A program made the translations under genes and the position numbers. A stretch of DNA of 64,000 nt from Amoebidium appalachense (Eukaryota; Protista; Ichthyosporea): NCBI GenBank assembly GCA_963693365.1, contig CAVNZM010000002.1, forward strand, positions 14,789,615 through 14,853,614. The letters are read 5' to 3'. Below are positions 40,701 through 43,700 of this stretch, piece by piece. Below the pieces are notes generated by a model. It did not search any database and had not been told where the DNA came from. It worked only from the letters and a program-made list of their open reading frames with translations. Each line of letters starts with the position of its first letter. The stretch's first letter is position 1.

Positions 40701-43700
40701 ATGTGCTTCTATGTCCCAAGGCAGTCAGTAGAGTCGAGATCGTCAATCCCATCCTGCTGGCCCGCCTACTCACATCAATGGTATCGCCCCCGCTCCCTCC
40801 TCTCCCCCCCCCCCCGTCTCCTGAGTTCCTATCTATATTTTTCTTGCTTCTGCTTACTGCTGCAACTTTAACCCCCGGCCTTTCCCACTGCCCTTGCCTG
40901 CATAAGCAACCCTGCTCGTCTCTGATCAAGACGGGTGACCTACCCATGTTCAAGTGAAACAGTATCTGAGTTGGGTTTCGTTAACGAGGGGAATAGGTCG
41001 AAACTCGGGTACTGTGGATGACGTGGGCCCCCCCTGAGGATGGGCTCGGCTTATTATGCATACTCTTTATGTACGGCTTGCATTCTGCATCGTGTTATCC
41101 GTTTGTTCTTGTGTACTTCGTACTTTTTGACGCATTCAAACCCCCCCCCCCCCACCAAACACACACACCACCACCATCACCATCAACAAACTCTTAACCA
41201 CCCCACCCCTCTTTCTTCCTGTCTCCCCGCTGCACTCTGCATTGTGTTGCCCGTCGTAGATATATACTCCGTATACTCCGTACTCTACAACACATTCTTA
41301 ACCACCCCACACCCTCCCCCCCTCTCCCCCTTCACCTCTGTTTATGTTCGGATACTGTGTGTGTGTGTGTGTGTGTGTGTCTGCTTTTCTATGAAGTGAC
41401 CAGAATCTCTTCCTTCCCATACATAGAGCCCAATCCATCACCCAACCTTCGGCTCTCCCATGCCACCACCCCCTATCCTTACATACCCGATCGCAGCCAA
41501 ACATTAACAATTCTAACCAATAATGAAAAAAATTAAAATCACAGGACCACACCACCTTCTCCACCATCACCTGGCCGGAGCTGCACCACCAGGCCTGGTC
41601 ACGTGACCCCAGTTCCAGTCCGATGATTGGCCGCCTGACACGGCGCTTTAATGCCGCCAGCGCCTGGGCCGTTTGGTTGGTGCTGGGGGGTGACGGTGAC
41701 GTCAAAAGGGCAATGGGGGTGGAGGTGATCATACAGGTGCGGCAACAAAAATTCTCTCTCTCTCTCTCTCTCTCTCTCTCTCTCTCTCTCTCTCTCTCTC
41801 TCTCTCTCTCTCTCTCTCTCTCTCTCTCTCTCTCTCTCTCTCTCTCTCTCTCTCTCTCTCTCTCTCTCTCCCCCCCCCCCTAACCACACACACAGGCACA
41901 CCCACACATACACATGCACAAAAATGGAACGAAGATCAAAAAGGGACAGAAAAGAAGTGGTGCCCCCCTCCCCTCCCCCCTCCTCCCTCCCCCACCCGTC
42001 CCTCTGGGGGTCCCTTGTGGTTTATAATAATGCTGTTTACTTCTGGACGCTTGCGTTTGAAAAGGAAAAGATCACCGATTTTTGCTCCTTTCCCCCCCAC
42101 TCTCGCCCACACCATATGCGTCAATTCTTTCATCCAAATCAAGATCCTTCTACTCCAACAATCGTACATCATACCCCAACCCTCTGCCCCCTCCACCCCC
42201 CTTCCCTTGCCCCCTGCTCCTCCCTCTCCCCCCCCCATCCTCCCCTCCCCCCTTGCTCCCCTCCCTCCTTCCCCCCCCCCCCCCCCCCCCCCCCCCCCCC
42301 GCCCCCCCCCGCGCCCCCAACAACCACGACCCCTTCCCTCCAACCAAAACAAACAAACATACCATCATCCCACAACCACCAATACCACCAACCCATTAGC
42401 CCACCCCACGACCCACCACTAACACCCCAACCCTAACCACCCCATCTCCCCTTAACCCCCCTCAGGTAGCCCAGGCCTGCTACGAACTCAGCAACCTACA
42501 CGGAGCCATCAGCATGGTGTCTGCCTTGAAGTACCACTCGGTCCGCAGGCTCAAGAAATCTTGGGAACTCGTCGCCCCCGCTGTAAGACCCCCCCCCCCC
42601 CCCTCTCCGCCCCCTCGCCCACCCCGCCGCCCGCCCGCCCATCCATCCCCACGCCATCTCCCTCTTACCCTTTTCTCCCAAAATTCTACCCTCTACAACC
42701 ACTACAACTGCCCAACCACCAGCCTTTTTGGTGCCCCCCCTCCCTTTTCGTTTCTCAGTTCCCCTATCCCCTCGTTCCTCTCTAGGCATAGTACCTCCGA
42801 ACTACATTGCCTGTTTCGACCCTATCCTCATTTGTGACACACCATTGCAGAAATCCTGCCCCTCGTTGTCCTCCCCCCCCCCCCCCCCCTCCCCCCCCCT
42901 CCCCCCGCCCTGCCTCCCTCCCCCCGCCCCCCTGCCCCCCCACAAACCCCTAAACATATACCCGGGCATTAATCATTTCATCCCCCTAAACTCCCCTACC
43001 CTTTCCCCTTCCTTCTCTCCCCCCACCTCCTCCCTCCCCCTCCACTCCTCTTCCGCCCGTTCCGCCCCCACTCTTCTCATCCCCCCCCCCCCCCCCCCCA
43101 GCATATTGATACGTTGGACCGACTTGAGACTCTTCTCACTCCGGGCAACCGTGCTGCATACCGCCTGGCCCTAAACAAGAGGTGTGTGTGTGTGTGTGTG
43201 TGTGTGTGTGTGTGTGTGTGTGTGTGTGTGTGTGTGTGTGTGTGTGTGTGTGTGTGTGTGTGTGTGTGTGTGTGTGTGTGTGTGTGTGTGTGTGTGTGTG
43301 TGTGTGTGTGTGTGTGTGTGTGTGTGTGTGTGTGTGTGTGTGTGTGTGTGTGTGTGTGTGCGCGCGCGCGCACGCGCGTATGCGTGTGTGCCTGTGCATT
43401 TGTGTGTGCATGCGTGTGGGGTTGGCCGGGTGTGAATGTGGGTTGGTAGATAGGTGCAAATCAATGATGTGTGTGCATCCGCGTCTGTTCGATTGTGTTC
43501 GTGTGAGTGTGTTGATGGATGGGGGGAGAATAAAGGAGACCAAATCCCAGTTCCTGAGATCTTTTGTGTGTTTCGTCAACATAAGCGCACTTTTTTTTTT
43601 AAATAACGTGAGAAACGTCTTTTTCTTTTTCTTTTCTTTTTCCCTGAACAGATATGATGTCCAGTGATTATTTCGTCTGGTTGTTGTCGTTAATACAGGA

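Follow-up and report, generated by a model that had tools for sequence, protein, structure and literature searches.

A window of 64,000 nucleotides from the genome of the ichthyosporean Amoebidium appalachense (contig CAVNZM010000002.1; all positions are those of the window) contains, at 40.9 kb, a hammerhead-like RNA that is predicted to cut itself. The best explanation, which we consider probable, is that this RNA forms the 3' end of a C-run-flanked repeat of a Penelope-like element (PLE), that its stem II is completed by a strand lying upstream, and that it would cut after the GUU triplet, at 40972. With less assurance, we also lean toward a broader proposal, of a seventh natural wiring of the hammerhead, with a four-way junction at A9/G10.1, which would be active, would represent an old 3' module shared by several PLE lineages, and would have type CSG as its sister.

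The Core and the Predicted Cut

The core is composed of the GUU triplet (40970-72), GAAA (41000-03), and CUGAGGA (41034-40), with a stem III of 12 bp (40959-70:41004-15) followed by the pair U16.1-A15.1, and with a stem I, GGG/CCC (40973-75:41031-33), of only 3 bp. The first-pass annotation had placed all of these elements correctly, and the cut that it predicted, between 40972 and 40973, is where the placement of the core would put it. The copies that it listed at 19.5 kb (the 19.4 kb copy below) and 51.6 kb are present, and a further copy with an intact core is found at 60.0 kb. A gapped motif pattern matches the window four times, compared to no match in each of 100 dinucleotide shuffles. 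The core nucleotides of CUGANGA, GAAA, and NUH are all present in the four window copies and in four related loci from marine metagenomes (L008, L012, L017, and L025, the marine relatives), and stems III (12 bp), I (3 bp), and II (5-6 bp, with the upstream strand) can all form, with the pairs G10.1-C11.1 and A15.1-U16.1 also present. As had been suggested, the strand order is pseudoknotted and non-circular and is missed by the models for types I, II, and III: no Rfam hammerhead reaches threshold, and no Rfam family at all reaches its gathering score in the window. The Hammerhead_1 model scores 14.2 bits versus a gathering score of 34 (E 2.1), and its alignment, too, pairs 40937 with 40999. Scanning the window by E-value returned sub-threshold matches only, mostly to miRNA models, and these were rejected, their positions being those of simple repeats; the four marine loci produced no Rfam match at threshold.

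It is conceivable, if unlikely, that the structure, while derived from a hammerhead, does not cut, or cuts negligibly slowly, and serves as a 3' recognition element for the reverse transcriptase (RT) of the retroelement. The 3-bp stem I, the GUU triplet, and the competing pairings are consistent with such a role. They also count against the preferred account, since stem I adjoins a run of seven C, with slipped registers possible, and GUU allows a U17-A14 pair, as in the predicted nested fold, which is itself not unusually stable (z -1.37). The genomic copies, moreover, hold an uncut site, none of the nine aligned window copies starting at the predicted cut, and minimal PLE hammerheads are reported to cut poorly in vitro, with other functions allowed for by the authors. 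Against this, the elements of ichthyosporeans, marine samples, and animals have all kept CUGANGA, GAAA, NUH, and G10.1-C11.1 exactly, although the sequences of their helices have changed. Moreover, published records of the animal PLEs known as Naiads include versions in which stem I reaches 5-6 bp and the triplet is GUA or UUC, compared to 3 bp and GUU here. Within the family, the invariance of the core does not reach significance (18 of 161 sites are variable, 0 of the 14 core sites being among them; P 0.18). Contigs ending at 40974 were considered as evidence for cleavage and rejected, because they end 30 nt past a common variant at 40944.

Strand Order and the Partner of Stem II

The predicted elements of the RNA follow one another in a defined order, all on the forward (+) strand. 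The 5' strand of the terminal helix P1 (40902..40913) pairs through its distal part (40902-08) with 41048-54 and through its proximal CCC with 41042-44, with a U.U at the junction. It is followed by the hairpin P0 (40914..40936), which starts with GCUC, ends with GGGU, and has a palindromic loop, UGAUCA (40923-28), by the 5' strand of stem II, GACCUA (40937..40942), which begins with G10.1 at 40937 and is displaced upstream of the cleavage block, and by the 5' strand of P4 (40943..40950), which pairs with 41020-27 in 8 of 8 bp. The cleavage block S (40959..40975) is made of the stem III 5' strand, the GUU triplet with the predicted cut, and the stem I 5' strand GGG; an inserted hairpin (40976..40989), which includes a self-complementary 10-mer, separates it from the stem II strand of block G (40994..41015), which includes the stem II 3' strand, GAAA, and the stem III 3' strand. 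The 3' strand of P4 (41020..41027), block C1 (41031..41040) with the stem I 3' strand and CUGAGGA, and the 3' strand of P1 (41041..41054) complete the structure, and part of the latter, 41043-47, doubles as a weaker alternative partner for stem II. Helices P0, P1, and P4, the upstream stem II strand, and the repeat context had all been omitted from the first-pass annotation.

The 19.4 kb copy has a compensatory version of P1, with 8/8 bp, and 7/7 bp are found in L012, L017, and L025; in the window copies, the part of P1 near the junction is weak. P4 comprises 8-10 bp of different sequence in the same three marine loci, while 4 of 12 variable helix sites disrupt P4 pairs, one of these variants amounting to 21% of the depth in X1. 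Nested folding on its own yields P1, P0, and P4 in L012 and L017, and its base-pair probabilities were set aside because such folding cannot represent pseudoknots. In a kink-turn, two helices flank a 3-nt bulge and, after it, tandem G.A and A.G pairs. Judged by this consensus, the P4/stem III junction has a canonical pattern in L008 and L012, a non-standard one in L017 and L025, and a marginal one in the 19.4 kb copy, and the 40.9, 51.6, and 60.0 kb copies do not pass; a canonical kink-turn was not supported for the main window subfamily. A CUGAUCA in the P0 loop, considered as a second core, was rejected, as it is not conserved.

For stem II, the strand directly after CUGAGGA had originally been chosen. 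This is probably a misassignment, the real partner being the upstream strand 40937-42, which pairs better in three of the four window copies and in all four marine relatives. Across these eight aligned sequences, which represent two to three related groups and from which both the descriptor and the structure were derived, the upstream stem II is paired in 40 of 40 cells, with two of its five pairs changed on both sides in a compensatory manner, compared to 26 of 32 cells for the downstream stem, which lacks the partner of G10.1 in all four marine sequences. Duplex energies, upstream versus downstream, are -7.3 versus -2.2 kcal/mol in the 40.9 kb copy, -8.6 versus -5.5 in the 51.6 kb copy, -7.3 versus -2.6 in the 60.0 kb copy, and -3.8 versus -0.5 to -2.8 in the marine relatives, with the 19.4 kb copy showing the opposite (downstream -7.3, upstream -4.1). 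Family-wide, the depths of the variants 40941T>C and 40995A>G are similar (1433.8 and 1433.5 in X20, X10 and X20 being RNA by guess only; 3-5% in X1 and X6). Since the upstream stem II is the most likely one, the two nucleotides after A9, which had been read as an insertion, are probably the start of P1. The contact between stems I and II, earlier attributed to the small hairpin between blocks S and G, is likely made by P4 (40943-50:41020-27). In the best-supported fold A9 and G10.1 are not linked directly or via 1-2 nt, with P1 and P0 lying between them, and a link of two nucleotides or fewer is limited to the alternative fold of the window copies, which is the weaker one. The core is thus likely opened between A9 and G10.1 by the terminal helix P1 and the hairpin P0.

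Comparison With Known Hammerheads

The block order, which had been put forward as undescribed, is that of type SGC of Eckert et al. (2023; PMC10085705), with S, then G, then stem I followed by CUGANGA. In that paper, types SGC and CSG are both reported to cleave in vitro, SGC being known from metatranscriptomes only, with none in the genomes of known organisms, and CSG from two DNA sequences of soil metagenomes. With SGC (HRIMA-1 and variants), our RNA shares the block order, the doubly pseudoknotted core, and a helix that links stem I to stem II, in our case P4. However, it is located in a eukaryotic genomic repeat, and, when compared by hand, its 3-bp stem I and its longer linkers do not fit the published descriptor (stem I of 4-7 bp, linkers of <=8 and <=15 nt, CUGAUGA(U)G). 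While Eckert et al. keep CUGAnGA and the stem II strand within 1-2 nt of each other, excluding the opened case, the best-supported stem II strand here is positioned approximately 100 nt upstream, joined via P1 and P0. With CSG, also DNA-borne, the shared feature is a stem II strand followed by an I helix and then by the S and G blocks, but the stem II strand of CSG comes directly after the stem I strand and CUGAUGA, whereas here the latter two are found at the 3' end. The type I hammerheads of PLE pLTRs and non-LTR retrozymes (PMC4209133; bioRxiv 10.64898/2026.07.22.740005) are similar in their position in a 3' repeat and in their proposed role in cutting tandem transcripts; they are nested, often with a tiny stem III, and in canonical or minimal forms tolerate one extra nucleotide separating position 9 from 10.1, as opposed to the pseudoknot, the long stem III, and the two helices at 9/10.1 found here. 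A core split at A9/G10.1 was not found in the literature searched, a comparison that leaves out PMC4509812 and PMC5785218.

A plain type-SGC ribozyme, with stem II formed by the strand after CUGAGGA, a 2-nt insert, and the upstream pairing as an alternative or regulatory one, is an improbable account of the family; such a wiring may apply at least to the 19.4 kb subfamily, in which the downstream stem has 6/6 bp, with no P0 junction. An intact block C is possible in all four window copies, with a downstream stem II of 4-6 bp (the stronger one in one of the four), an SGC descriptor fits all four and none of 100 shuffles, the variant 40995A>G strengthens the downstream stem as well, and 1-2 nt between CUGAnGA and the neighboring stems are permitted by Eckert et al. 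(PMC10085705). However, an intact block C is impossible, and the downstream stem II cannot be formed, in any of the four marine relatives or in any of eight Naiad records (see below), and this stem is the weaker one in three of the four window copies. This wiring is also outside the Eckert descriptor with its stem I of at least 4 bp and its limits on linkers, and it leaves unexplained both the paired change at 40941 and the position of P4 directly 3' of the upstream strand, which matches its placement relative to the stem II strand in SGC and CSG. With stem II formed upstream, as we prefer, the RNA would belong to the non-circular class of SGC and CSG, with one further circular permutation and with an opening between A9 and G10.1. 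Helices P1 and P0 would stack, the four-way junction would hold A9 beside G10.1, and P4 would make the contact between stems I and II, as in SGC and CSG.

Just as improbable as plain SGC is activity as an intermolecular dimer or a tandem pair, in which two self-complementary loops would join the RNAs and the core would be activated or made complete in trans. The P0 loop and the inserted hairpin of window and marine copies hold perfect palindromes, of 4-6 nt and 6-10 nt, respectively, a double change from UGAUCA to UGGCCA occurs at equal depth (40925/40926; 12901 and 13107 in X1, 3172 and 3118 in X6), and cleavage as a dimer has been described for PLE hammerheads, an in-trans mode having been proposed for the minimal ones. 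However, stem III is long here, and therefore the usual reason to dimerize is absent, the Naiads of octopus, clam shrimp, and Acropora have P0 loops that are not palindromes, the Naiad records have no inserted hairpin, and hairpins are partly palindromic by nature, the palindromes having been counted with no null.

Naiad Elements and a Possible Seventh Wiring

The same split layout can be recognized at the end of eight published Naiad consensus records (supplement of Craig et al., 2021, surveyed by eye and unsystematically), from a ctenophore, three Acropora, one more cnidarian, a clam shrimp, and two octopuses; their stem sequences are unrelated, and none has a downstream stem II that could be used. 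The ends of P0 are GCUC...GGGU in the ctenophore and Acropora records, as here. Because six nematode Naiad records end, by eye, in intact type-CSG hammerheads, both forms, CSG and split, are suggested to belong to PLEs. The whole record of Naiad_Ppla contains no such motif, and no split fold is seen among the Chlamys matches displayed. Naiads have been reported to lack canonical hammerheads, and the same source carries the remarks "HHR_core" and "HHR_half_core" on some elements (Craig et al., 2021; PMC8557442). Our family shares with the Naiad and Chlamys PLEs of that paper 5' truncation, partial tandems, and microsatellite targets, (C)n as in Chlamys; it differs in its host, ichthyosporeans having no occurrence in the main text.

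The lineages sharing the seventh wiring could include the animal Naiads, the endonuclease-less marine protist elements, and the (C)n-targeting ichthyosporean family. If so, the "missing" hammerheads of Naiads would be present after all, eukaryotic genomes would commonly contain non-circular permutations, instead of these being a rare feature of viroid-like RNAs, and a reversion to plain SGC might be represented by the 19.4 kb copy. If the RNA does cleave, the stated assumption of six block orders for hammerheads would be broken, and the core would tolerate two helices at A9/G10.1, which would be useful for structural work and for the design of ribozyme switches. Cleavage would also settle the remark in the PLE literature that Naiads "lack canonical HHRs" while some carry unexplained core fragments, and would mean that high-copy non-circular permutations exist in eukaryotic genomes, in hosts ranging from a single-celled relative of animals to corals and octopuses.

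The Repeat and Its Likely Relation to Penelope-Like Elements

In three of the four marine loci (L012, L017, and L025), the C-terminus of a PLE RT is encoded upstream of the RNA, on the same strand, 238-311 nt from the predicted cut. The RT of the marine relatives has DKG/DKN and appears to lack an endonuclease (a relative, P0127, has DKN and no GIY-YIG match), and because of this we did not place the marine element in the Naiad/Chlamys clade, defined by an N-terminal GIY-YIG, a CxC linker, DKA, and IFD. The window family displays traits of PLEs, namely 5'-truncated copies, a common 3' end, partial tandems, and microsatellite insertion. Searching the window with tblastn revealed no PLE ORF or RT, and therefore the link of the window family to PLEs is one of analogy, by which the repeat is likely a PLE of the ichthyosporean and the copy at 40813..41140 likely its 3' UTR/pLTR. 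An RT fragment at 8851-9513, LINE-type by look and not linked, was rejected as a partner, as was a non-LTR retrozyme (an array of short monomers in tandem, all of them carrying a type I hammerhead), the copies being dispersed and variably truncated and the ribozyme not being of type I. By analogy with canonical PLE hammerheads (PMC4209133), cuts in successive tandem copies would free a unit-length, possibly circular, RNA, which would be reverse-transcribed by the PLE RT, with copies inserted into C-runs.

As to wider searches, 28 of the 32 loci from the metagenome pattern scan lack stem III or stem II and were therefore put down to chance. L015 and L028, one repeated sequence, passed the descriptor with a score of 24, below the single shuffle match of 26, and were dropped; the descriptor missed two of the eight true copies (the 19.4 kb copy and L025). 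Pattern matches in viral contigs (2/2 and 18/18) were rejected as chance, these contigs having no match to the window motif or to the marine RT, and prokaryotic genomes gave no match.

The repeat is highly repeated, and its copies in the window share the 3' end, are 5'-truncated, and sit in C-runs. The 40.9 kb copy, 40813..41140 (+), has a C-run on both sides; depth drops at 40812, while other contigs continue further upstream. The second copy, 51526..51755 (-), is truncated within P1 and has a compensatory stem II, with a predicted cut after 51693, and the third, 59968..60184 (+), is truncated within P0, with a predicted cut after 60016, the ends of both being approximate. The 19.4 kb copy, 19311..19679 (+), represents a diverged subfamily, follows a (CT)n run, misses 7 nt at the P0/stem II junction, and has a predicted cut after 19480. 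A copy at 20846..21038 (+) is truncated above stem III, with its core altered to CUGAGGU. Decayed 3' fragments are located at 51325..51481 (-), directly after the 51.6 kb copy, making a partial tandem, at 63198..63319 (+), and at 40352..40487 (+); the shortest 5'-truncated copy, 39623..39691 (+), retains the 3' end only, and a decayed fragment at 61949..62045 (+) represents the 5' half of the ribozyme. Head-to-tail joints across C-runs are found in contigs. A motif search of the window located no upstream continuation of the repeat. By eye, however, such a continuation has some resemblance to the sequence with which the 19.4 kb copy begins.

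Core Motifs and the Pairing of Stem II

The hammerhead core motifs GUU, GAAA and CUGAGGA are found where the first-pass annotation had placed them within 40902-41054, as is stem I (GGG/CCC), and stem III has a run of 12 pairs (40959-40970 with 41004-41015). The gapped motif pattern matches the window four times (19478, 40970 and 60014 on the forward strand, 51695 on the reverse) and is absent from all 100 dinucleotide shuffles of the window; an Rfam scan returned zero families above threshold for the window or the candidate RNA. Judged from its sequence, the 40.9-kb feature is a genuine hammerhead-class RNA of a non-circular class, with cleavage predicted.

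One metagenome scan yielded 32 loci, four of which (L008, L012, L017, and L025, all marine) belong to a related family; the remaining 28 were rejected as chance matches. In these marine copies the bases after CUGACGA are unable to supply G10.1 and pair with the 5' end of the RNA to form the terminal helix P1 (7 of 7 bp in three of the four; 40902-40913 with 41041-41054 in the window copy), and the strand before GAAA pairs with an upstream GAC strand located 3' of a hairpin, P0, that starts with GCUC and ends with GGGU. The window copies possess an equivalent upstream strand at 40937-40942, following P0 at 40914-40936. The stem II originally drawn with the strand after CUGAGGA gave way to this pairing: in an alignment of eight sequences, relatedness ignored, it is paired in 26 of 32 cells, versus 40 of 40 for the upstream strand. 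Two pairs of the upstream stem II are changed on both sides across the alignment, and the whole core plus P0 is paired in 96% of 127 cells, falling to 26-57% after sliding, in controls that ignore relatedness among eight sequences making up only two to three groups. Duplex energies favor the upstream stem II in seven of the eight, the exception being the 19.4-kb copy; the truncation of a ninth, the 20.8-kb copy, lies above the upstream strand. A descriptor of this split form, in which P1 and P0 open the core between A9 and G10.1, scores 32-40 on six of the eight copies and found one match, of score 26, in 100 shuffles, a result that is partly circular because the descriptor was written from those same sequences. 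The upstream stem II is very probably the correct pairing.

Directly 3' of the upstream strand lies a further helix, P4 (40943-40950 with 41020-41027), whose other strand immediately precedes the stem I 3' strand. It has 8 bp in the window's main subfamily and 8-10 bp, of different sequence, in L012, L017, and L025, and its position is that of the 'I' helix of types SGC and CSG as described by Eckert et al. (2023; PMC10085705). In the marine copies the P4/stem III junction is K-turn-like, canonical in L008 and L012 and non-standard in L017 and L025; in the window copies a K-turn was not borne out, 40955-40958 forming with 41016-41019 no more than a purine-rich internal loop that the two window subfamilies share.

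The model has weak points, namely a stem I of 3 bp, the GUU triplet, an unremarkable nested fold (z -1.37), a weak proximal P1 and a competing downstream register for stem II. The 19.4-kb copy (19311-19679), from a diverged subfamily, is a further weak point: its P0/stem II junction is short by 7 nt, and its downstream stem II is the stronger. It could be either a split form in decay or genuinely SGC, possibly a natural switch to plain SGC.

Variation across the Family

At 18 of the 161 sites in 40900-41060, public contig depth reveals variants (at least 1%). Twelve lie within model helices or at their edges, with pairs kept or added at eight; 40941T>C and 40995A>G have matching depth and maintain pairing, their linkage being deduced rather than seen because depths are per site. 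P4 pairs are broken at four sites, 41023 and 41027 (21 and 3% of depth in contig run X1) and 41025 and 41026, the latter two in few contigs of runs X10 and X20 only. None of the 14 core nucleotides varies, which is not significant (P 0.18). It is possible that the active RNA is a dimer, as the loops of P0 (40923-40928) and of the inserted hairpin (40978-40987) are self-complementary, equivalent loops are present in all four marine copies, and the double variant 40925/40926 preserves the palindrome.

Relation to Published Strand Orders

The order of cleavage, GAAA and CUGAGGA strands (A-C-B), at first taken for an undescribed topology, corresponds to type SGC, already validated in vitro (Eckert et al., 2023; PMC10085705), where S is the cleavage site, G is GAAA, and C is CUGAnGA with its stem I and II strands. 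In the accessible text of that survey, SGC was found only in metatranscriptomes, genomes of known organisms provide a single GCS candidate and otherwise zero motifs, block C is presumed to tolerate an interruption of at most 1-2 nt, and the descriptor demands a stem I of at least 4 bp and short linkers. The 40.9-kb RNA fails both the stem I length and the linker limits, and it is outside type SGC as defined there. Our search, which covered few subscription papers, turned up no account of a hammerhead whose core is opened at A9/G10.1, and none of permuted hammerheads within Penelope-like elements (PLEs). The accessible portions of the literature compared included reports of 1-2-nt core insertions at other positions (PMC3088659), a paper (PMC13725137) that speaks of variants "containing additional helices" and refers for them to Weinberg 2015, Eckert 2023 and Forgia 2023, and PMC10162972, PMC13159263, PMC544870 and bioRxiv 10.64898/2026.07.22.740005.

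A Probable Penelope-Like Repeat Family

A dispersed repeat carries the 40.9-kb RNA close to its 3' end, this copy spanning about 40813-41140. Nine aligned window copies, which differ in their starts, share a common 3' end with C-runs or C-rich sequence after it; nhmmer gives 15 matches in the window, one a duplicate. The copy is overlapped by 7,920 public contigs of one run, and summed contig depth exceeds 1 million inside it, compared to 51 in a flank bin, which shows a highly repeated family, such depth not being equal to copy number. Other contigs extend upstream of 40812, and the family is therefore longer than the 40.9-kb copy. The stretch is present in 20 of the 24 runs listed, across six studies. 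At 51325-52127 (reverse strand), three copies or fragments in one orientation lie within 800 bp, two joined by a C-run. Runs of at least six C or G number 330 (6.2% of the window), and (CA)n and (CT)n are abundant; many of the C-runs may mark old insertions of the family. The PLE clades Chlamys and Naiad are described as truncated at the 5' end, forming partial tandems and targeting (C)n (Craig et al., 2021; PMC8557442), and the window repeat is alike in all three; the same text states that they are without canonical hammerheads, with core fragments in some.

Among the matches listed from the supplement of Craig et al., which has 54 Naiad records and line ends that hide motifs, the split layout, by eye, ends eight consensus records: Bfor, Amil, Aacu (with mismatches), Anas (nearly identical to Amil), an unnamed record of the cnidarian section, EuTe, Obim and Ovul, every name except EuTe being taken from the next header and the order of the table. 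These have stems II of 6 bp, stems I of 2-6 bp, P4 of about 5-16 bp and GUA or UUC triplets; by eye, a stem II from the bases after CUGAUGA is impossible in all eight, and in most those bases pair with the strand that immediately precedes P0. The Acropora and Bfor hairpins retain GCUC...GGGU, which speaks for their homology to the window RNA. Intact type CSG, again by eye, ends six nematode Naiad records of File S5 (two in the Pristionchus section, Naiad-2 and -3_Nbra, one in part 15, and Hpol); the two CSG examples of Eckert et al. are from soil DNA and therefore might derive from nematode-type Naiad elements. No split or CSG motif was seen in the whole sequence of the Naiad_Ppla record, and no such fold in Chlamys among the matches listed. 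At the 3' ends of several arthropod Naiads, CUGACGA comes after a C-run and GAAA lies upstream, in layouts that read ambiguously by eye.

In three of the four marine loci, 238-311 nt separate the end of a same-strand ORF from the predicted cut downstream. Its homologues are PLE-type reverse transcriptases (RTs; precomputed PF26215), with DKG/DKN and YIDD motifs that we take to be of PLE type. At neither end of P0127, an apparently full-length relative, is there an endonuclease match, and the marine partner therefore looks endonuclease-less rather than Naiad. L012, L017 and L025, together with the related RT proteins P0001-P0005 and P0126-P0129, form an apparently endonuclease-less marine PLE lineage with few named relatives.

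Proposed Mechanism

Strand order, pairing potential, covariation, repeat anatomy and the RT linkage in relatives are observed; on these we would build the following model. P1 and P0 would stack at a four-way junction replacing the A9-G10.1 link, a position at which PLE hammerheads are described as bearing one extra nucleotide (PMC4209133), P4 would dock stems I and II, and the RNA would cut after 40972. Tandem transcripts so cut could provide unit-length or circular templates for the PLE RT, after the model outlined in PMC4209133 and PMC6765202; the uncut site in genomic copies fits a religated or uncut template. Taken whole, a split-core hammerhead of a PLE-like repeat that cleaves after 40972 seems to us a reasonably probable reading.

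Other Genes in the Window

A heat-shock-factor gene with introns occupies 24626-25968 (forward strand). The top four matches to its domain, well above fungi and animals, are a EukProt entry (88%), Ihof- and CFRG-labelled sequences (84 and 68%; presumably Ichthyophonus and Creolimax) and Sphaeroforma arctica (69%), which makes an ichthyosporean the likely host of the repeat. A decayed RT fragment at 8851-9513 (reverse strand; PF00078, YADD motif), which we assume to be LINE-like, is unlinked to the repeat. A RasGEF N-terminal-like exon, below the Pfam cut-off, lies at 37743-38630 (forward strand), and an Mpv17/PMP22 gene fragment at 4401-5129 (reverse strand).
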